In this document: positions 2,935 through 39,344 of the stretch, one piece after another
Position numbering within the stretch: position 1 is the first letter of the stretch
Layout: each line of letters begins with the position of its first letter
Assembly: GCA_963807625.1 (NCBI GenBank)
Contig: CAWECN010000020.1
Coordinates: 118,270-182,269, forward strand
From: an uncultured Gammaproteobacteria bacterium
GTDB taxonomy: Bacteria > Pseudomonadota > Gammaproteobacteria > SZUA-229
Length of the DNA: 64,000 bases
Direction of reading: 5' to 3'
Notes under the pieces: model-generated
The model's input: only the letters and a program-made list of their open reading frames with translations
What the model was told of the DNA's origin: nothing
Database searches by the model: none
Program-made: the position numbers and the translations under genes

Positions 2935-4434
2935 ATGGAATACACAGTAAAAAGCGGCAACCCCGAAAAACAAAGAATCGGATGTGTTGTGATACCGGTT
3001 TTTGCATCTAGAAAACTATCGTCATCCGCAAAGATCATCGATAAGGCAAGTAACGGCTATATCTCTAACCTCGTTCGACGTGGCGAAATCGAAGGCGATC
3101 TGGGCAACACCCTGCTGCTACATAATGTAGAGAACACTTTATGCGATCGTGTTCTTCTGGTTGGCTGTGGCAAAGAAAAGGACATCGACGTCAGGACCTT
3201 CTACAAGATTAACTGCAACATGGTCAAGAGGTTAGAGTCCAGCGGTGCCACAGAAATAGCCTCCTACCTCACCGAGATAACGGTTAAACGTAAAGACATC
3301 AGCTGGAAGATCCATCACTCGATCGAAGCCATCGACGATTGCCTCTACAAGTTCAACCAGCTCAAATCCAAAAAGGAAGAAGCCCGGCGTCCGTTGAGAA
3401 AATTCATATTCAGTGTCAACGGTCGCGGCCAGCTGATGCTGGGGGAACAGGCTGCGCGCCAGGGTATGGCTGTTTCTGCCGGTATCCACCTCGCCAAAGA
3501 CCTGGGCAATCTACCGGGCAATATATGCACACCAGACTACCTGGCAAAGCAGGCGATCAAACTGGCCACCCAGCATAAAAAATTAAAAACTTCTGTGCTG
3601 GAAGAGAGTGATATGGAGAAACTGGGAATGGGCTCCCTGTTGTCTGTCTCTAAAGGCAGCCGTGAACCTGCTAAATTGATCACCATGGAATACATGGCCG
3701 GTAACAAAAAACAGGCGCCGATTATCTTTGTCGGCAAAGGCGTGACCTTCGATTCAGGCGGTATCAGCTTGAAACCGGGTGCTGCCATGGATGAGATGAA
3801 ATATGATATGTGCGGTGCCGCCAGTGTCATAGGCGTGATCAGCGCCTGTGCAGATCTGCAGCTACCGATGAATATCGTCGGCATCATCCCCGCAGTGGAG
3901 AACATGCCTGACGGCATCGCCAGCCGCCCCGGCGATGTTGTCACCAGCATGTCAGGCCAGACCATCGAAATATTAAACACCGATGCCGAAGGCCGCCTGA
4001 TACTTTGCGACGCCCTGACGTATGCAGAAAAATATGATCCCGACGTGGTCATCGATATCGCTACCCTGACCGGCGCCTGTATCGTCGCCCTGGGTGCACA
4101 CCCCGCTGGATTGCTCAGTAACCACAACCCGCTGGCGAACGATCTGTTGTCTGCCGGCCAGACCAGCGGCGACCGTTGCTGGCAGCTGCCATTGTGGGAC
4201 GACTACCAGGAACAGTTAAAGAGTAACTTTGCAGACATGGCGAACATCGGCGGCAAAGGTGCTGGCACGATTACCGCCGCCTGCTTCCTCTCCCGTTTCA
4301 CCAAGAAATATCACTGGGCACACCTCGACATTGCCGGCGTCGCCTGGAAGAGCGGCGAAAACAAGGGAGCCACAGGTCGGCCGGTAGGACTACTCGCACA
4401 GTACGTGCTCGACCGCTGTGTCGATTGTGAATAA
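2935..4434 (+). CDS. pepA: leucyl aminopeptidase PepA (M17 family)
   Basis: 499 aa, collinear and highly similar to E. coli PepA, including the NTDAEGRL active-site signature. Confidence 0.95.
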   Translation: MEYTVKSGNPEKQRIGCVVIPVFASRKLSSSAKIIDKASNGYISNLVRRGEIEGDLGNTLLLHNVENTLCDRVLLVGCGKEKDIDVRTFYKINCNMVKRLESSGATEIASYLTEITVKRKDISWKIHHSIEAIDDCLYKFNQLKSKKEEARRPLRKFIFSVNGRGQLMLGEQAARQGMAVSAGIHLAKDLGNLPGNICTPDYLAKQAIKLATQHKKLKTSVLEESDMEKLGMGSLLSVSKGSREPAKLITMEYMAGNKKQAPIIFVGKGVTFDSGGISLKPGAAMDEMKYDMCGAASVIGVISACADLQLPMNIVGIIPAVENMPDGIASRPGDVVTSMSGQTIEILNTDAEGRLILCDALTYAEKYDPDVVIDIATLTGACIVALGAHPAGLLSNHNPLANDLLSAGQTSGDRCWQLPLWDDYQEQLKSNFADMANIGGKGAGTITAACFLSRFTKKYHWAHLDIAGVAWKSGENKGATGRPVGLLAQYVLDRCVDCE

Positions 4435-4445
4435 ATACAGCCAAC

Positions 4446-5018
4446 ATGCCTGATTACGACCCAAAGAGCATACCTATCCTCGATGACATCATCGAGGATG
4501 ATATCGCCGACGATGATAAAGCCGCATCAGAACTGACAGGCACTGACTTTACCGACATAGATAATCAGGATGGTGATGAAACAGCTATCAACAACCTGGA
4601 TCTGTTCACCAGTGATGATATAGATGTCGAAGACGAAACCATGGAACCGGCGCTCGGTACCATCGATCGATTTATCGATTCAGCAGGCGATGATCCAACA
4701 GCGATCGAAACGGATACTATAGAATCAGCCCTGATCGATTACCACATAGATCAGGATGAGCTGGACATCAACGTTCAGCACGACACACAAATGCTCGACG
4801 ATATCCCTGACTCTGATGAAACCTTCGATGACATAACTATCGAAGATACCGCCAGTGACCCGGTCCAGCCAACTACACTCAACTCGATCGTCGATGATGT
4901 CGTAAAACAGCTTATACCTGATCTGGAACAGCAGTTACGCTACCTGGTACGACAGGCGCTGGAAGAAAAGTTACCAGAAGAAATAGTCAAACAGCTCTCT
5001 GCCGAGGATAACGACTGA
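4446..5018 (+). CDS. hypothetical, extremely acidic (D/E-rich), low-complexity protein
   Basis: 190-aa ORF in which a large share of residues are D or E, with only a C-terminal amphipathic stretch (LRYLVRQALEEKLPEEIVKQL). It starts 12 bp after the pepA stop with a weak RBS. It occupies the position where holC sits in E. coli and Pseudomonas. Confidence 0.45.
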   Translation: MPDYDPKSIPILDDIIEDDIADDDKAASELTGTDFTDIDNQDGDETAINNLDLFTSDDIDVEDETMEPALGTIDRFIDSAGDDPTAIETDTIESALIDYHIDQDELDINVQHDTQMLDDIPDSDETFDDITIEDTASDPVQPTTLNSIVDDVVKQLIPDLEQQLRYLVRQALEEKLPEEIVKQLSAEDND

Positions 5019-5150: not shown

Positions 5151-8009
5151 ATGGAAAAAACCTATAACCCGCAAGCCATCGAAAGCAAATGGTACGAAAC
5201 CTGGGAAAGCAGCGGTTATTTTAATGCCAACCAGAGCTGCGAAGGTGCGAGCAAGACGGCAGAGTGCAATAACTACTGCATCATGATACCGCCGCCGAAT
5301 GTCACCGGCCGGTTACACATGGGACATGCCTTCCAGGACACCATCATGGACGCCATGATCCGTTATCACCGTATGAAGGGTGACAACACTTTATGGCAGG
5401 TTGGAACCGACCATGCAGGCATCGCTACGCAGATGGTGGTCGAACGTCTGATCAATGCCGAAGGCAAGACCCGTCATGATTACGGGCGAGAGAAGTTCAT
5501 CGAGAAGATCTGGGAATGGAAAGAACACTCCGGTAACACCATTACCAATCAGTTGCGCCGTATGGGCGCATCACTCGACTGGTCGCGTGAGCGTTTCACC
5601 ATGGACGAAGGTCTGTCGACGGCAGTAACCGAAGTTTTCGTACGCCTCTATGAAGAAGGGCTGATCTATCGCGGCAAACGCCTGGTCAACTGGGACCCAG
5701 CACTGCACACAGCGGTATCCGACCTGGAAGTGCTGTCGAAAGAAGAAAACGGGCACATGTGGCATATCCGCTACCCGCGCAGTAATGGTGCCGGCCATGT
5801 CGTGGTTGCTACCACCCGCCCGGAAACTCTGTTAGGTGACTTTGCTGTTGCGGTTAATCCCACTGATGAACGTTACTCATATCTACTTGGCGAGTTTCTT
5901 GAATTACCACTGACCGGCCGAAAGATTCCGGTATTGGCCGATGAACATGTCGATGCCGACTTTGGCACCGGCTGCGTAAAGATCACGCCGGCTCACGATT
6001 TCAACGACTACCAGGTCTGGTTGCGCCACAAGAACAAGACCGAAGTACGTGAGCTGCCTCACGGCGGCCTGATCAACATACTGACCAATGATGCAGCCAT
6101 CAGGGACAATGAAGATGATATACATAATATTATCCCGGAAGCGTATATCGGCCTGGACCGTTATGAAGCGCGCAAGCGGATTGTTGCCGACCTTGAAGCA
6201 GCCGGCCTGCTGGAAAAAGTGGACGACCACAAACTAATGGTGCCACGTGGTGACCGTTCTAATGCCGTCATCGAACCATTTTTGACCGACCAGTGGTACG
6301 TAAAAGTAGAACCGCTGGCAAAACCGGCGATCGAGGCGGTAGAGAACGGCCGTATCAAGTTCACCCCGGACAACTGGAAAAACACCTACTTCGAATGGAT
6401 GAATAATATCGAAGACTGGTGTATCTCACGCCAGATCTGGTGGGGACACCGTATACCTGCATGGTACGACGATGTCGGCAATGTCTATGTCGGTCATGAT
6501 ATCGATGAGGTCCGCAGCAAGAATAAATTACCGGACGACTTCCCGCTGACACAGGATGAAGACGTCCTGGATACCTGGTTCTCATCAGCGCTGTGGCCAT
6601 TCTCGACCCTGGGCTGGCCAGAGAAGACACCAGAGCTGGAAACTTACTACCCGACAAACGTACTGGTGACCGGTTTCGATATCATCTTCTTCTGGGTCGC
6701 ACGTATGATTATGATGGGGCTGAAGTTCATGGGCGATGTCCCCTTCCATGAAGTCTATGTACACGGCCTGGTACGTGATGCCGAAGGCCAGAAGATGTCG
6801 AAGTCTAAGGGCAACGTACTCGATCCGATGGACGTCATCGACGGCATCGACCTCGAATCGCTGGTAGAAAAACGTACTACCGCAGTGATGCAGACACACC
6901 AGGTAGAACGTATCGAGAAGCTAACGCGTAAAAACTTTCCTGATGGTATTCCCGCATTCGGCACCGACGCGATGCGCTTCACCTTCGCTGCCCTGGCGAC
7001 GACCGGACGCGACGTGGTGTTTTCACCATCACGTATCGAAGGCTACCGCAATTACTGCAACAAGATATGGAACGCCACACGTTATGTGTTGATGCAGGCA
7101 GAAGACAAAGACTGCGGTCTGCTCGATGATGGTTCAGATAAACCGGATGTCGTGCTGTCACTGGCCGACCGCTGGATAATCTCACGTTTACAACGTGTCG
7201 AAGCCCGTGTCGAAAAGCACAGCGACAATTCCCGCCTCGACCTGATCGCACATGACCTGTATGCCTTCGTCTGGGAGGATTACTGTGACTGGTATCTCGA
7301 ACTGTCGAAACCGGTTCTGTTTAATGATGAGACACCGGAGAATGAACAACGCGGTACACGCCGCACGCTGGTTCGCGTACTGGAAACACTGCTGCGCTTG
7401 AATCATCCTATCATCCCGTTTATCACCGAAGAGTGCTGGCAGAATGTTGCGCCACTCGCTGGCATACATGGCGACAGTATCATGCTGCAACCCTACCCCG
7501 AATCTGACGATAGCAAGATCGATGATAAAGCTGAAGAAGACCTGGAATGGGTGAAGACCTTTGTCAGTGGCGTACGCCGTATACGCTCCGAGATGGATAT
7601 CCCTCCGGGCAAACCATTATCGCTACTGCTGCAGAATGCGACCGACCACGATAAGCAGCTTTATCAGGACAACCAGGTCTTCATCGAAACCCTGGCAAAG
7701 ATAGAAAGCAGTGTATGGCTGACCGAAAAAGACGATGCGCCGGAATCGGCAACCGCCTTGGTTGGCGAGATGAAGATCCTGATCCCGCTTGCCGGACTTA
7801 TCGATAAAGACGCCGAGCTTGTGCGACTGGCGAAAGAGATCAGCAAGATACAGGCGAACGTCGATAAGACGACAGCCAAACTGGTGAACAAAAACTTTGT
7901 CAACAAAGCCCCGGCCACCGTCGTCGAAAAAGAAAGAGAACGGCTGGCTGAGATGAGCAGATCGATCGAGCAGCTTAAGGAACAGGCAGAGAAAATCAGC
8001 GCTCTCTGA
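5151..8009 (+). CDS. valS: valyl-tRNA synthetase
   Basis: 952 aa with class I aaRS HIGH ([14 protein letters not shown]) and KMSKS motifs and a C-terminal coiled coil. pepA-valS synteny is conserved. Confidence 0.97.
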
Positions 8010-8049
8010 TATTTCGATTTCCAGAGAAGAAAGCTTAAAAGCGATTCAT

Positions 8050-8146
8050 CGCAGAGGCACAGAGAACGCAGAGTTATATTTTATTAGCGTGCCTACGGCA
8101 TATTAACAAAAAATACATTTTCCTCTGCGTTCTCTGTGCCTCTGCG
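8050..8146. repeat. Long hairpin element: 24-bp perfect inverted repeat with a 49-nt loop, followed by a T-rich tract. REP-like; probable valS terminator.
   Basis: Left arm CGCAGAGGCACAGAGAACGCAGAG (8050-8073) is the exact reverse complement of the right arm (8123-8146). A T-rich run follows. A related element lies at 17925-18017. Confidence 0.7.
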
Positions 8147-8306
8147 GTTAAATCTTTTTGTTTTTTGTTCTTTGTTTTTCGTTCGACTTAACAGCCATTA
8201 TCAAGCAGCCAGACATATGAATACCTGGTCCTAAAATCCAGACTCTTGCAAAGTATCGGTTTAACAGGGTATCCTCATGTGAACCGTAACTATTAATATA
8301 AAAACC

Positions 8307-8858
8307 ATGGCAACTCCTGAAAAAACTGAACAGATCCTGCAAACACATGCCAGTCTCATACTGGCGGTAGTGCAGACGATCCAGAACCCGGATCTCAAAC
8401 CGCATTTAGATCTGGTACTGCAGCAATCTGCACAGAACGGCTGGCAGGACCTGGTCAACGCTATCAACAAGATCGTCGCCGGAAGCCGGGAGCAGTCACT
8501 GGTCAATGGCCTCGATGAAGAAGATGCCATCATCGTCGACAGCATACTTCTTGGCCTGCAGGACCCTTCGACGCTGCCATCTTCAGAGCAGACGGGCGAT
8601 GCAACCAAAGCCGCACCGATGATAGCCCGACTGATCAATGAAGCACGTCGCGGTGACCATAACGCGCTTTCCATGTTAGGCACCATGGCTGAACAGATGT
8701 CCAGAGCTGGTGGTGACATGGCCAGCCTCAGCGCTGTGATCAAAGACATGATCGACGGCGAACGCAGTATCGACAAACTATGCACACGCATGGGCGCGCA
8801 GGGTGAGTCACTGATAACACAGATCGTGGGCGAGCTGGGCAAACTCGATACACATTAG
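8307..8858 (+). CDS. hypothetical protein (no recognisable family)
   Basis: 183-aa ORF with an RBS-like GGA upstream and coding-like composition. It is the first gene of an apparent four-gene operon. Confidence 0.45.
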   Translation: MATPEKTEQILQTHASLILAVVQTIQNPDLKPHLDLVLQQSAQNGWQDLVNAINKIVAGSREQSLVNGLDEEDAIIVDSILLGLQDPSTLPSSEQTGDATKAAPMIARLINEARRGDHNALSMLGTMAEQMSRAGGDMASLSAVIKDMIDGERSIDKLCTRMGAQGESLITQIVGELGKLDTH

Positions 8859-9803: not shown

Positions 9804-10826
9804 ATGAACCACTACGCTAAAAACACTTTAAGACTTATTTCTTCGCTCTGCCTATTTTCAGCGCTGATCGCCTGCTCCCCTGCCGGCGATAACGATCCTG
9901 AAAAAACGACATCACAGAGCAGTCCTGCGACTGAAGAAGCCGTTACCAATGAATTCCCATATGCGTTCGAGAAGGTAACAGACAACACCTGGGTGATGCA
10001 TGGTCCGCGCGAACTGCCGAACCCGCAGAACAAGGGCTTCATGAATAACCCGGGTATCGTTAAAACATCGGCCGGCCTGGTCATGATAGACCCCGGCTCT
10101 ACCGTACAGGTCGGTGAGAACGTTCTGGCCGAAGTTAAAAAGGTAAGCGACCTGCCTATCGTCGCGGTTTTCAATACGCATATTCACGGTGATCACTGGC
10201 TGGCAAACCAGGCGGTTAAAACTGCCTATCCTGACGTTAAGATCTACGGGCATAGCGAGATGCTGGTGGAGATCGAAAATGGAGAAGGTGAAAACTGGGT
10301 CAACCTTATGGATAGCATGACCGAAGGCGCCAGCAAGGGCACCATCGTGGTCGCGCCCGACAACGCCGTCGACAATACCAATATCATCAAAGTCGGTGAT
10401 ACACAGTTCAAGATACACCATTACGGTATAGCCCATACTAAAACGGACATCATGATCGAAGTCATCGAGAATTCTGTGATCTTCCTCGGTGATAATGTTC
10501 TGTCATTGCGCATCCCGAGAACGTCCGATGGCACCTTCCAGGGAAACATCTCTACCATCGAGACCATGCTCCAGAGCGAAGCGAAAACCTATGTGCCCGG
10601 ACATGGACCGACCGGCGACAGGGCCATGGTCGAAACATACCTGGGTTACCTGACACGGATCTATGAAGCCGCTCAAAAAGCTTTCGAGGAAGATCTGGAC
10701 AGCAGTGATGTGATTGGCATCACACAGGAGACGACCGCAGCCTATAAAGACTGGCATGGTTATGATGATCTGCTTGGGCCACAGGGTGCGCAGGCGTATA
10801 GTGAAGTTGAAGCGGCTGAGTTTTAG
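9804..10826 (+). CDS. MBL-fold metallo-hydrolase, secreted/lipoprotein
   Basis: 340 aa with a signal peptide and lipobox-like LIACS, and the metallo-beta-lactamase motif HIHGDHW (HxHxDH). Confidence 0.75.
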   Translation: MNHYAKNTLRLISSLCLFSALIACSPAGDNDPEKTTSQSSPATEEAVTNEFPYAFEKVTDNTWVMHGPRELPNPQNKGFMNNPGIVKTSAGLVMIDPGSTVQVGENVLAEVKKVSDLPIVAVFNTHIHGDHWLANQAVKTAYPDVKIYGHSEMLVEIENGEGENWVNLMDSMTEGASKGTIVVAPDNAVDNTNIIKVGDTQFKIHHYGIAHTKTDIMIEVIENSVIFLGDNVLSLRIPRTSDGTFQGNISTIETMLQSEAKTYVPGHGPTGDRAMVETYLGYLTRIYEAAQKAFEEDLDSSDVIGITQETTAAYKDWHGYDDLLGPQGAQAYSEVEAAEF

Positions 10827-11108
10827 TATTTAGTTATCCTCTCGAATCTGTTGACCTGTCATCTCGAATGAAGGGATTCCTACATGGAGGTAGGTTATTA
10901 GAGCAATGCAGGAGCAATTGCCGAGAGATCTTGAGTTGGCAACGATGTTATTTAATTCTGATACGGCTTTTAATCAGGCATTGCGGGTCTCGCCCCGCAA
11001 TCTCTAATCTAAGGGACAGATCTATTTTAAAATTCTAAAAAAGATCTGTCTGTTGGTCGAGATGATAGTAGTGATTTATGGATGACAAAGAAATTTATAG
11101 ATTACAGA

Positions 11109-12698
11109 TCAATTATAAATCCCATGCTCACGCGTAGAAAGGAAATTGATCTCCGGCCACTTCTCAATAGTCATATCAAGATTAACGCGCGTCGGTGCGA
11201 TATAGGCAAGGTCACCGGCGTGATCGAGGGCCAGGTTGGTCGTCTGGCGTGCCTTGAACTTGGCCAGCTCTTTATCATCATCGCATTCCACCCAGCGTGC
11301 AGTGGTGACATTAACCGCTTCAAAATTGCAGTCGACACTGTACTCATCCATCAGTCGATGTTTGACTACTTCAAACTGCAGCACACCGACGGCTCCAAGA
11401 ATCAGGTCATTATTATGCAGGGGGCGGTATAGCTGAGTCGCACCCTCTTCACATAACTGCATCAATCCTTTCTGCAGCGCTTTCATTTTCAACGGGTCTT
11501 TCAACTGCGCACGCCTGAACAGTTCAGGTGCAAAGTTAGGGATGCCGGTAAATGCCAGGTCTTCTCCCATGGTGAAGGTATCGCCGATACGCATGGTTCC
11601 ATGGTTATGCAAACCGATGATATCACCGGAAAAAGCCTCTTCGACATGTTCACGATCCGATGCCATAAAGGTCACGGCATCAGCGAGTTTGATATCTTTG
11701 CCCAGGCGCACATGTTTAACCTTCATGCCCTTCTTATAGGTACCGGAGCAGATGCGAACAAAAGCGATGCGGTCACGATGCCCCGGGTCCATGTTCGCCT
11801 GGATCTTGAACACAAAGCCGGTGAACTTATCCTCTTCGGGTTCTACGATACGGCTCTGGGTCTCGCGGGCCCTGGGTGACGGTGCGAAGTCATTCAATGC
11901 ATCGAGCAGTTCACCGACACCGAAATTATTAATACCTGAACCGAAGAATACCGGGGTCAGTTCGCCTTTTTGATAAGCCGCCAGGTCAAATTCGTGACTG
12001 GCACCTTTCACCAGTTCGATCTCTTCGCGAAGTTCTTCCGCCAGATGCCCGAGGATCTTATCGAGTTGTGGATTATCCAGCCCTTCGACGACATCACCGG
12101 CCTGTATCTTTCCGCCGTGCGTCGCGCTGAAGAAATGCACGGTATCGGTGGCAAGATTGAATACACCCTTGAAGTTTTTACCCATGCCGATGGGCCAGGT
12201 GATCGGTGCACATTGAATATTCAGGATGTCCTCGATCTCATCGAGGATATCGATGGGCTCACGTGCTTCCCGGTCCATCTTGTTGACGAAGGTAATAATC
12301 GGCGTGGTGCGCAGGCGACAGACCTCCATCAATTTGATGGTCCTGTCCTCGACACCTTTCGCCGCATCGATCACCATCAATGCCGAGTCGACGGCCGTCA
12401 ATGTACGGTAAGTATCCTCGGAGAAATCGGCATGGCCCGGTGTATCCAGCAGGTTGATGATGCAATCTTTGTGTGGAAACTGCATGACAGAAGAAGTCAC
12501 CGAGATACCACGCTGCTTCTCCAGTTCCATCCAGTCGGATGTGGCATGACGTGCTGCTTTTCGACCTTTTACCGTACCCGCCATCTGGATCGCACCGCTG
12601 AACAGCAGCAGCTTCTCTGTCAGCGTGGTCTTACCGGCATCGGGGTGAGAGATAATGGCGAAGGTTCGCCGACGTTTTACTTCATCTAAATAAGCCAT
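11109..12698 (-). CDS. prfC: peptide chain release factor 3
   Basis: 529 aa with an N-terminal GTPase domain ([18 protein letters not shown]). Collinear with E. coli RF3. Confidence 0.95.
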
Positions 12699-17867: not shown

Positions 17868-17924
17868 AAGCTTAAGGATAGCCTAGTCTTGCTGTATCGT
17901 CTAACTATAAAAAGACATATTTAA

Positions 17925-18017
17925 CCGCAGAGGCGCGGAGATGCAAAGTTTTTTATTGTTAATTGCGCCCGCGGCGCAACTAACAATAATAATATATTTT
18001 TCTCTGCGTCTCTGCGG
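17925..18017. repeat. Long hairpin repeat of the same family as 8050-8146 (CCGCAGAG...CTCTGCGG arms) with a nested inner palindrome
   Basis: Arms are CCGCAGAGGCGCGGAG (17925-17940) and CTCTGCGTCTCTGCGG (18002-18017). The loop holds an inner IR, TTGTTAATTGCGCC/GGCGCAACTAACAA. Terminal motifs are shared with the post-valS element. Confidence 0.6.
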
Positions 18018-18040
18018 TAAACCAGGCTTTTCAGTGGTAC

Positions 18041-18068
18041 AAAAAAAGGGCCCGACGGCCCTTTTTTA
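18041..18068. terminator. bidirectional rho-independent terminator (downstream of ilvC)
   Basis: AAAAAAA-GGGCC-CGAC-GGCCC-TTTTTT: a GC stem flanked by an A-run and a T-run. Confidence 0.7.
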
Positions 18069-28664: not shown

Positions 28665-28740
28665 TGGTGGGCCGTGAGCGACTTGAACGCTCGACCATCG
28701 GATTAAAAGTCCGGTGCTCTACCAACTGAGCTAACGGCCC
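28665..28740 (-). tRNA. tRNA-Lys (anticodon UUU)
   Basis: The reverse complement reads GGGCCGTTAGCTCAGTTGGTAGAGCACCGGACTTTTAATCCGATGGTCGAGCGTTCAAGTCGCTCACGGCCCACCA. It folds as a cloverleaf with a 7-bp acceptor stem, a CTTTTAA anticodon loop and an encoded CCA. Very close to E. coli tRNA-Lys. Confidence 0.9.
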
Positions 28741-38686: not shown

Positions 38687-39344
38687 ATACTTTTGGTTTG
38701 GCCTTGCGGTTCTCGCACCGCGGGCGAGGTACTCTTTTGCAATAGCCCAAAAGAGTGCCCAGAAAAGGCCACCACGTCAGCTGCGCCCCTGTAGAAAGCA
38801 CAGGGGTTCCCATTGAGGCATTACTGTTATCATGCTGTGCCAGAACTCGCGGAAGACGCTCAGACAGCTGGCGCAGAAAGCCCATGATAACAGTAATGCC
38901 TCAATGGCTAGCTAAGGTGGGTTGAAGGTCAAAGTCAAAAGCAAAAACTGGTATTGCTGAAGATTCACTAATCCTTTCGTAAGCGTTGGTTTTTGTTTTC
39001 GTTTTTTTCTCCCTTTTTGTTTGCTGAATTCATCACTGTTGGTAGAGCAAATTCGCCATGGACGGCGAATTTAGTCCTGTGCGCCCGGATGGCGCATCAG
39101 GACGGGCTCGTTGGCAACAGTGATGAATTCAGGCACCCCGAGTGCTTTTCTCGGGGCAAACGAAGTGGGATGGCATTCTTTTGGTTACTTTTCTTCTGCT
39201 ACTGAAAGAAAAGTAACTCGCCGTAAAAGGCGAAACTCACGGTAACAATCCACGTACCTAAGTAGCGTTAATAAAAGAGAAATAATGAAATCAGAAAAGA
39301 GTACCTCGCCCGCGGTGCGAGAACCGCAAGGCCAAACCAAAAGT
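38687..39344. repeat. ~0.66-kb non-coding nested-palindrome element bounded by 51-bp perfect inverted repeats (MITE/PATE/REP-cluster-like, or a large structured RNA)
   Basis: The outer IR is 38687-38737 against 39294-39344, matching 51/51. Internal perfect IRs are 25 bp (38809-38833/38882-38906), 18 bp (39023-39040/39114-39131) and 12 bp (39183-39194/39205-39216), plus several 5-9-bp hairpins. There is no credible ORF; it sits in an 820-bp intergenic gap. Confidence 0.7.

Follow-up and report, generated by a model that had tools for sequence, protein, structure and literature searches.

A hairpin after valS in an uncultured gammaproteobacterium is probably a copy of a dispersed mobile palindrome with CGCAGAG-unit arms

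In a 64-kb stretch of contig CAWECN010000020.1 from an uncultured gammaproteobacterium of the SZUA-229 lineage (64,000 nt, hereafter the window), the gene valS is followed by an unusually long-stemmed hairpin, here termed e1. Our analyses indicate that e1 is probably a copy of a small, non-autonomous mobile palindrome of ~120 bp, a foldback element resembling repetitive extragenic palindromic sequences (REPs) and miniature inverted-repeat transposable elements (MITEs), which incidentally supplies the 3' hairpin of valS. Small palindromic repeats of these kinds influence where transcripts end, how stable mRNAs are and how genomes rearrange, and the known families are lineage-specific and tied to a known type of transposase. 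The arms of the present family are built from tandem CGCAGAG units, and a second copy (e2) lies between ilvC and pssA, the two being the sole copies within the window. At the level of the window the message is modest: a mobile element supplies the hairpin at the 3' end of valS, a position taken by unrelated hairpins in sister lineages. Feature coordinates are collected in Table 1.

The valS open reading frame (ORF) is 89-91% identical at the nucleotide level to genes of relatives with tRNA-synt_1, Anticodon_1 and Val_tRNA-synt_C products. Beginning 40 nt past its stop codon, the left arm of e1, CGCAGAGGCACAGAGAACGCAGAG (8050-8073), is the perfect reverse complement of 8123-8146, and the 24-bp stem and 49-nt loop reported by a first-pass annotation of this DNA are exact to the nucleotide. 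A 24-bp perfect inverted repeat within 200 nt has a calculated expectation of ~5e-8 occurrences per 64 kb, dinucleotide shuffles give 0.01 occurrences per window for the inner 7+7-nt motif pair alone, and no other extended inverted repeat in the window is as long as e1. In the predicted RNA fold the outer pairs extend to 8154, with a free energy of -60.7 kcal/mol for the plus strand (z = -10.2) and -65.0 kcal/mol for the minus strand; as single-stranded DNA, either strand folds at ~ -36 kcal/mol. The T-rich tract described behind the hairpin is likewise present, as TCTTTTTGTTTTTTGTTCTTTG at 8153-8174, and comes after e1.

The first-pass annotation had also proposed that the end motifs of e1 recur in the element between ilvC and pssA. 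This second copy is real and aligns with e1, in both orientations, but each of the quoted motifs occurs on one side only. The ends read TTCAT/CGCAGAG and CTCTGCG/GTTAAA in e1, and TTTAAC/CGCAGAG and CTCTGCG/GTAAAC in e2; the e1 head, GCTTAAAAGCGATTCAT, is similar to that of e2, and the tail is identical in both copies. Arms mirrored around a loop are found in both: e1 has three units per arm in perfect pairing, and e2, with units CGCAGAG-G-CGCGGAG-A..., has two per arm with two G:T-type positions. Both are oriented with local transcription, at a sample size of two. e2 is inserted immediately past the T-run of the ilvC terminator, in the direction of transcription; this terminator is a separate, canonical hairpin that occurs without e2 in a relative (L263). 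The terminator hairpin is bidirectional and was left uncalled by a terminator scanner, though apparently within the scanner's stated criteria.

To place these copies in a wider context, one genome per GTDB species (596 Gb) was scanned for the exact pattern CGCAGAGNCNCNGAG-N45-75-CTCNGNGNCTCTGCG, which has 24 fixed bases. At least 120 genome loci match, against a calculated chance expectation of ~0.1, and the matches extend well past the fixed bases of the pattern; at least 120 metagenome loci match a second pattern, anchored on the GTTAAAT end of the window copies. The genome matches listed span ~13 phyla, with hosts among the Acidobacteriota, Verrucomicrobiota, Planctomycetota, Alpha-, Beta- and Gammaproteobacteria, Desulfobacterota, Myxococcota, Bacteroidota, Chloroflexota, Gemmatimonadota and Cyanobacteria, together with a Heliomicrobium, Desantisbacteria and FCPU426. 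Of the genome matches listed, all except two are metagenome-assembled genomes (MAGs). Isolates carry the element too, namely Nostoc sp. ATCC 43529, Chitinilyticum litopenaei DSM 21440, Sphingobium (including Sphingobium sp. TomTYG64), Sphingopyxis and Novosphingobium (including N. capsulatum), as do a MAG whose record is that of a complete chromosome sequence and several assemblies that recovered one locus independently. Conversely, when the window was searched by nhmmer with a hidden Markov model of 238 foreign termini, exactly the four termini of e1 and e2 were recovered (E=3.3e-6 to 6.1e-6), the next match having E=0.4. The earlier view of a dispersed family rather than a one-off terminator is right but understated the case: the family spans ~13 phyla and is polymorphic for insertion among close relatives, the pattern search returned abundant further copies, and the two window loci are related by alignment.

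Of 119 foreign loci, each no longer than 8 kb, 7 contain a second independent copy; this agrees with the two copies in the 64-kb window and suggests that carrier genomes hold tens of copies each. Among plasmids (72,556 in PLSDB), four sphingomonad megaplasmids carry the element, where it is unannotated, and it is absent from 5,426 E. coli genomes. A phage origin was rejected, as only 18 viral contigs match the pattern. Neither Rfam 15 nor the accessible literature, including work on REPs, on REP-associated tyrosine transposases (RAYTs) and on HUH enzymes, contains a description of the CGCAGAG family (subscription-only literature was outside the scope of this search). The arm strings appear in that literature only in primers and in the inverted terminal repeat of adeno-associated virus, and the motif is absent from a hairpin census, a triplex-repeat paper and RepRanger.

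The arms consist of 2-5 tandem CGCAGAG(N) units mirrored around a loop that varies in sequence and in length. Across 134 elements, the loop has a median of 41 nt (range 7-377), units are most often spaced at 8 nt (359 cases), followed by 9 nt (103), 11 nt (52) and 10 nt (32), and unit counts of the two arms are mostly 3/3, 4/4 or 2/2. The end consensus is TTYAM ... KTRAA, the commonest ends being TTCAC/GTGAA, and pairing runs five bases beyond the outermost unit before falling to background. In pairing statistics from 141 elements, flank position -1 is Watson-Crick paired in 124, with four pair types, versus 53 in shuffles, and the inter-unit spacer pairs in 92 (45 G:C, 42 A:T and 5 T:A) versus 59 in shuffles. 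Both window copies have inner arms rich in AT and an apex of the form NNGCC-N3-GGCNN, features of a subfamily that is also represented in four of the loci fetched for comparison (designated by L-numbers: L060, L090, L160 and L167), with L160 holding three copies in 7.9 kb; similar GCC-N3-GGC apices occur in L187 and L203.

Copies from Burkholderiales (L033 ~3040-3230, L034 and L064 from Polaromonas, and L042 from Rhizobacter) have conserved, non-palindromic outer flanks, GAAGTCATTCAC ... GTGAAGGCTGTT, and the Polaromonas copies are nested within a further inverted repeat, GTAACTACTNAG ... CTNAGTAGTTAC. Beyond the universal core, each lineage therefore has a head and tail of its own. Joined at the base of an extruded cruciform, TTCAC ... 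GTGAA ends would give TTCACGTGAA, which corresponds to the middle 10 bp of parS, a site that is widely conserved (tGTTNCACGTGAAACa). The window ends, TTCAT/GTTAA and TTAAC/GTAAA, misfit such a join, and the likeness may be coincidence.

Evidence for mobility comes from relatives collected via the 183-aa protein encoded downstream of valS and via PssA. Between ilvC and pssA, the alignment of L263, a more distant relative, with the window breaks between 17919 and 18041 with nothing missing on the L263 side, the junction being ambiguous by 1 nt (A). Since the L263 flanks abut without loss, 17920-18040 represents a clean insertion of 121 nt, in which no more than one base is duplicated. Of the two window copies, e2 is the older. 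A third site was identified in L270 and L271, from a relative with 92% protein identity, where a copy with arms CACAGAG/CGCAGAG and ends TTTAC...GTTCA (L270:3048-3140) directly follows the stop codon of a Lactamase_B gene; in the window the 283-nt intergenic region after Lactamase_B (10826-11109) is without a copy, contains other small palindromes and is unalignable with the relatives. These comparisons indicate that the family moves among sites within the genus.

The e2 site also exhibits rearrangement in place. In six independent assemblies of sister strains (L278, L279, L281, L282, L284 and L285) the e2 core is inverted and its flanks are collinear with the window. BLAST gives an extra match in the opposite orientation for the inverted core, and the L278 core (4825-4915) matches the opposite strand of the window at 83/91 positions, versus 68/91 on the same strand. 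These alignments show a palindromic core capable of flipping between flanks that stay fixed. In L277, L280, L283 and L287-290 (PssA 98% identical), a hairpin with CGCGAAT or CGCAAAT units and a similar head is found at the e2 spot, and represents either a fast-diverged orthologue or a sister subfamily that was swapped in.

At the valS site, the copy was found in the window and L002 only among the relatives compared, and is absent from L266/L269, L261, L270/L272, L262, L263/L264 and L287-289. BLAST alignments with L261, L266/L267 and L287-289 (89-94% nucleotide identity) end at 8005 and resume at 8241-8245, and these relatives carry an unrelated hairpin, AAGTTGTATGTT...AACATACAACTT, after valS. 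Another hairpin follows valS in L270/L272 and a plain G+C-rich hairpin in L263/L264; that of L262 (5615-5740) has arms of (GTTGGCA)4 versus TGATAAC/TGCCAAC/TGATGAC/TGTCAAC and overlaps the TAACTGA repeat (PMC4679880). Five lineages thus have five unrelated hairpins directly after valS, with folding energies of -16.6 to -48 kcal/mol, which suggests that this slot needs a hairpin or attracts palindromic insertions, maybe both. The pattern of presence and absence indicates that e1 entered the valS 3' region, or replaced its prior sequence, after the split from relatives of ~90-94% identity. In L002 (~100-165, corresponding to window 8060-8122) most of the left arm has been lost through a deletion of 47 nt between the short direct repeats GGCAC and GGCAT. 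This deletion is typical of palindrome slippage, or is possibly an effect of short-read assembly.

With respect to function at valS, the element would be passive: it would be transcribed and fold at ~ -60 kcal/mol against the U-rich tract. On this model e1 probably ends the valS mRNA, protects it, or both, acting as a terminator or a block to exonucleases, and insulates a downstream operon that has its own promoter; in every relative compared, unrelated hairpins appear to do the same job after valS. A putative promoter of that operon is TTGCAA-N18-TATCCT, both hexamers of which lie in invariant columns of an alignment of 7 sequences. The terminator role proposed for the hairpin by the first-pass annotation is hence plausible for the valS copy, because the U-rich tract abuts the extended stem, but it does not hold as a family-wide property: T-runs are not enriched downstream of the elements (13, versus 9 upstream, n=46).

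Gene context, assessed from crude ORF calls, was 33 convergent, 46 tandem and 8 divergent in the genome set, with elements usually 5-60 nt past a stop codon, and 14 convergent, 45 tandem and 11 divergent in the metagenome set. This bias toward 3' ends fits either a tolerance of insertion there or targeting of terminator-like structures. Most calls of a "genic" context arise because elements are misread as N-terminal extensions. In one case a solo arm (L026:7250-7285) lies at the start of a 648-aa ORF (5375..7321, minus strand), where it is read as an extension containing ...FTAETQRSRRNP... (AETQRSRR); elements can consequently corrupt start-codon calls in G+C-rich genomes. Annotation and assembly are both affected, as the elements create spurious N-terminal extensions of this kind and, as in L002, are likely points of breakage or deletion in short-read assemblies. 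We detected no orientation bias, the asymmetric GTTAAAT end lying with and against genes in 16:16 cases, and in tandem contexts the transcribed strand had no advantage in folding energy (12:11 and 11:12).

Insertion of these elements produces no target-site duplication. Among 116 elements, direct repeats of 2-9 nt at offsets 0-8 showed no excess, and the lack of a target-site duplication at any offset makes a classical DDE-made MITE unlikely; terminal inverted repeats of the MITE kind are present. The lack of a duplication also points away from classical DDE transposases and toward a hairpin-dependent route of the HUH/Y1 kind, and IS200/IS605 elements and REPINs likewise leave no duplication (PMC6006769). 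The likeliest mechanism, in our ranking, would be mobilisation in trans via a folded single strand, by an HUH/Y1-like or other hairpin-dependent route, in which a trans-acting enzyme would recognise the repeated units or the folded strand. Ranked second is the maintenance of arm symmetry, which may be due to intrastrand template switching at quasi-palindromes, to selection for folding, or to both; core inversion could follow from template switching or from recombination between the inverted arms. Quasi-palindrome correction and the inversion of hairpin loops are established phenomena. The role of the transcribed element as the valS 3' hairpin ranks third.

A search for autonomous copies, in which unpaired arms lie 0.3-6 kb apart, identified only one convincing split copy. 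In L253, an IMG/VR contig, perfectly complementary three-unit arms at 5743-5765 and 8228-8250, TCTCG/CGCAGAGACGCAGAGGCGCAGAG ... CTCTGCGCCTCTGCGTCTCTGCG/CGAGA, are separated by 2.46 kb. Between them, in a region flanked by terminase genes (the large terminase gene adjoins), are three phage ORFs that are ParB-like or unknown, one having a ParB_N domain, and no transposase; L253 may be a cargo-carrying or split copy.

Comparison with known systems places the family near, but outside, the REPs. A REP is a stem-loop of 8-9 bp or a little more, with a 4-5-nt loop in the CGTC families, and an unpaired GTAG or CGTC tag (Di Nocera et al., PMC3733652), and on this definition the element is not a REP. 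Behaviour is shared: the elements are short, multi-copy and intergenic, lie by gene 3' ends where the neighbours converge or run in the same direction and rarely where they diverge, leave no target-site duplication, form as whole units a ~100-nt hairpin as REPINs do, and vary in presence between strains. The earlier description of e1 as REP-like accordingly stands for behaviour and fails for membership. The element arms are direct octamer arrays, repeats of CRCAGAG, that have no internal palindrome and cannot fold alone; their TTYAM/KTRAA ends lack GTAG, and CGTC arises incidentally when the spacer base is A. Further, REP sequences are lineage-specific whereas the CGCAGAG arm motif is common to ~13 phyla, and the RAYT linkage of REPs was unseen among recurrent neighbours in ~870 kb of flanks (whole genomes and window ORFs were not scanned for Y1_Tnp).

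MITEs such as the Correia/NEMIS elements of Neisseria, the ERIC/IRU repeats, RUP and Nezha share with the family a non-coding body of ~100 bp, terminal inverted repeats, insertion polymorphism and co-transcription. Correia and ERIC sequences are co-transcribed with neighbouring genes, in whose transcripts they can serve as hairpins, be cut by RNase III or terminate transcription weakly. Unlike the CGCAGAG elements, however, DDE-made MITEs have duplications (TA for Correia), their inverted repeats lack a build of short tandem units, and the present family yielded no parent insertion sequence (IS) in the loci and plasmids searched. The closest architectural analogues are the Foldback (FB)/Galileo elements, with arms of variable numbers of tandem sub-repeats and a variable, sometimes cargo-bearing middle (compare the 2.46-kb L253 copy), but these are eukaryotic, measure kilobases, use a P-element-like or FB transposase and make duplications, and no homology is implied. 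The TAACTGA/STRR heptamer repeats of Beggiatoaceae, Cyanobacteria and Bacteroidetes (PMC4679880) are likewise short tandem intergenic units, patchy over distant phyla and with no known mechanism; they differ in forming direct, unmirrored arrays of another unit sequence with a 7-nt period, mostly just upstream of start codons. REPs and REPINs are the nearest behavioural counterpart of the family, and the TAACTGA repeat the nearest precedent for a short unit shared across phyla.

Several observations weigh against the proposal that e1 is a non-autonomous mobile element that happens to serve valS. The same heptamer recurs across ~13 phyla, which is unusual for MITEs or REPs and which the proposal does not explain. 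No linked gene was found: all-against-all BLAST of ORFs from the 8-kb flanks of 120 loci returned only the ubiquitous ABC, SDR, response-regulator and histidine-kinase families, and no parent IS with the family ends was present in 1.67 Mb of fetched loci or in PLSDB. The gene contexts derive, as noted, from crude calls, and the lack of T-run enrichment argues against a general termination role. At valS itself, insertion is inferred, because relatives show a replaced segment (8006-8240) and no clean empty site, and the close strain L002 tolerates the deletion of most of one arm, its remnant hairpin having ~10 bp and -27.7 kcal/mol.

Because the constancy of the heptamer over ~13 phyla is unexplained, two further readings stay in play. 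We consider it possible, though not likely, that the elements form a distinct pan-bacterial foldback class, for which an unrecognised conserved enzyme or host pathway would read the octamers or the folded strand, integrate elements with no duplication, frequently just past the ends of genes or the T-runs of terminators, and invert the core; the arm sequence shared over ~13 phyla would then reflect one recognition system, and not the horizontal spread of an ordinary IS. If so, the constant 7-nt arm unit, the lack of duplication and of a linked gene, and the in-place flip would point to conserved recognition machinery that is as yet unassigned, and the family would provide a searchable marker for the exchange of hairpin "cassettes" at gene 3' ends.

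Less probable is a reading in which the CGCAGAG repeats are recognised, as duplex, cruciform or RNA, by a host factor that is conserved, with mobility secondary. The elements would then serve as sites for supercoiling or nucleoid organisation, as proposed for REPs and bacterial interspersed mosaic elements with gyrase and integration host factor, or for RNA processing. Such a factor would account for an arm sequence that is constant over hosts of very different G+C content and phylum when loops and outer flanks are free, for the lack of a linked transposase, and for a copy spacing of ~1 per 60-120 kb (two per 64 kb in the window). However, no candidate protein was identified, copies are gained and lost among relatives of 90-94% identity with other hairpins taking the same place, the e2 site of a sister strain is occupied by CGCGAAT units and another strain has lost most of one arm, and the family is missing altogether from the E. 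coli genomes surveyed.

It is very unlikely that e1 arose where it stands as an intrinsic terminator dedicated to valS and resembles e2 by convergence. The strong hairpin 40 nt past the stop, the T5-G-T6 run directly after the extended stem and the presence of some hairpin at the valS 3' position in every relative would suit this reading, and like an intrinsic terminator the valS copy has a G+C-rich stem after the stop with a U-rich tract next to it. Nonetheless, the profile made from copies in other phyla matches all four termini, e2 sits past an independent canonical terminator, and the family, dispersed and mobile, shows neither a directional downstream T-run nor an orientation bias. The geometry also lies far beyond the usual, with a stem of at least 24 bp and a loop of 49 nt versus 5-12 bp and 3-8 nt; the terminator consensus scanner limits loops to 3-8 nt, and e1 was uncalled for that reason. 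These counterpoints already contradict a terminator as the sole explanation of e1.

We give still less credence to a structured non-coding RNA, whether a cis-regulatory element of the 3' untranslated region or a small RNA, that is selected as RNA. Very stable predicted folds, covarying arms and the location of copies in transcribed 3' regions are offset by the even split of fold energies and orientations between strands, by the core flipping between strains, and by the two G:U-compatible positions of e2, which sit on the non-transcribed strand. Rfam searches at gathering thresholds of the window and six foreign loci gave no match at the elements, and a permissive scan of 7980-8320 gave only generic miRNA-precursor-like hairpins far below threshold.

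An integron attC-type site or an assembly artefact is scarcely credible: an attC is also an imperfect palindrome, of 60-140 bp, and one end of each window copy fits an R box (GTTAAAT as GTTRRRY, ATTTAAC as RYYYAAC), but attC is ruled out by the family end consensus (commonly TTCAC/GTGAA) and by gene context, the neighbours being the housekeeping genes valS, ilvC and pssA with no cassette arrays or intI and the arms being tandem repeats, while the predominance of MAGs among the genome matches listed, which might suggest an artefact, is countered by the isolates, the complete-chromosome MAG and the independent assemblies of one locus.

Table 1. Positions of the two element copies, their profile matches and associated features (window coordinates unless a comparison locus is named).
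Feature	Position	Strand	Remarks
valS	5151..8009	+	952-aa ORF; stop TGA 8007-8009; upstream gene, transcript would enter e1
Lineage-specific intergenic segment holding e1	8006..8240	.	Unrelated hairpin-bearing sequence in relatives
e1 left head, GCTTAAAAGCGATTCAT	8033..8049	+	Read from sequence; approximate boundary; similar to e2 minus-strand head CTGAAAAGCCTGGTTTAC
e1 left arm	8050..8073	+	Three tandem units, CGCAGAG-G-CACAGAG-AA-CGCAGAG
e1 loop	8074..8122	+	49 nt, AT-rich; apical mini-hairpin GTGCC-TAC-GGCAT at 8089-8101 (folds)
e1 right arm	8123..8146	+	Exact reverse complement of left arm
e1 right tail, GTTAAA	8147..8152	+	Common to e2 read on minus strand; equals end of e2 insertion by empty-site comparison
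T-rich tract, T5 G T6 G TT C TTT G T5	8155..8179	+	Abuts extended stem; possible U-tract for valS termination
Promoter-like site, TTGCAA-N18-TATCCT	8246..8275	+	Ahead of downstream operon; homology with relatives resumes here
Downstream gene	8307..8858	+	ORF; 183-aa protein, no Pfam family; followed by DUF1415 gene
e2, second copy	17920..18040	-	121-nt insertion; minus-strand order: 24-nt head GTACCACTGAAAAGCCTGGTTTAC, 91-nt core, tail GTTAAA
e2 palindromic core	17926..18016	.	Arms 17926-17941 and 18001-18016; apical hairpin TTGCGCC-CGC-GGCGCAA 17963-17979
Canonical ilvC hairpin with T-run, A7 GGGCC CGAC GGCCC T6	18041..18067	-	Separate from e2, directly after ilvC
Profile match, e1	8045-8073	+	E=5.4e-6
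Profile match, e1	8152-8123	-	E=3.3e-6
Profile match, e2	17920-17947	+	E=5.5e-6
Profile match, e2	18021-18001	-	E=6.1e-6
Unrelated post-valS hairpins	L262:5615-5740; L266:4024-4112; L270:336-450; L263:9900-9940
CGCGAAT/CGCAAAT-type hairpins	L280:~585-690; L287:~9850-9960		After ilvC terminator

Elsewhere in the window, a 25-bp perfect inverted repeat with a 48-nt loop, CCATTGAGGCATTACTGTTATCATG (38810-38834 / 38883-38907), has a geometry like that of e1 and an unrelated sequence. It lies ~100 nt upstream of a TwoAYGGAY RNA (Rfam RF01731) at 39009-39147 on the plus strand, which scores 70 bits against a gathering threshold of 43. Also identified was a tRNA gene at 28668-28740 on the minus strand, adjoining a stretch of lower G+C content at ~22-28 kb.

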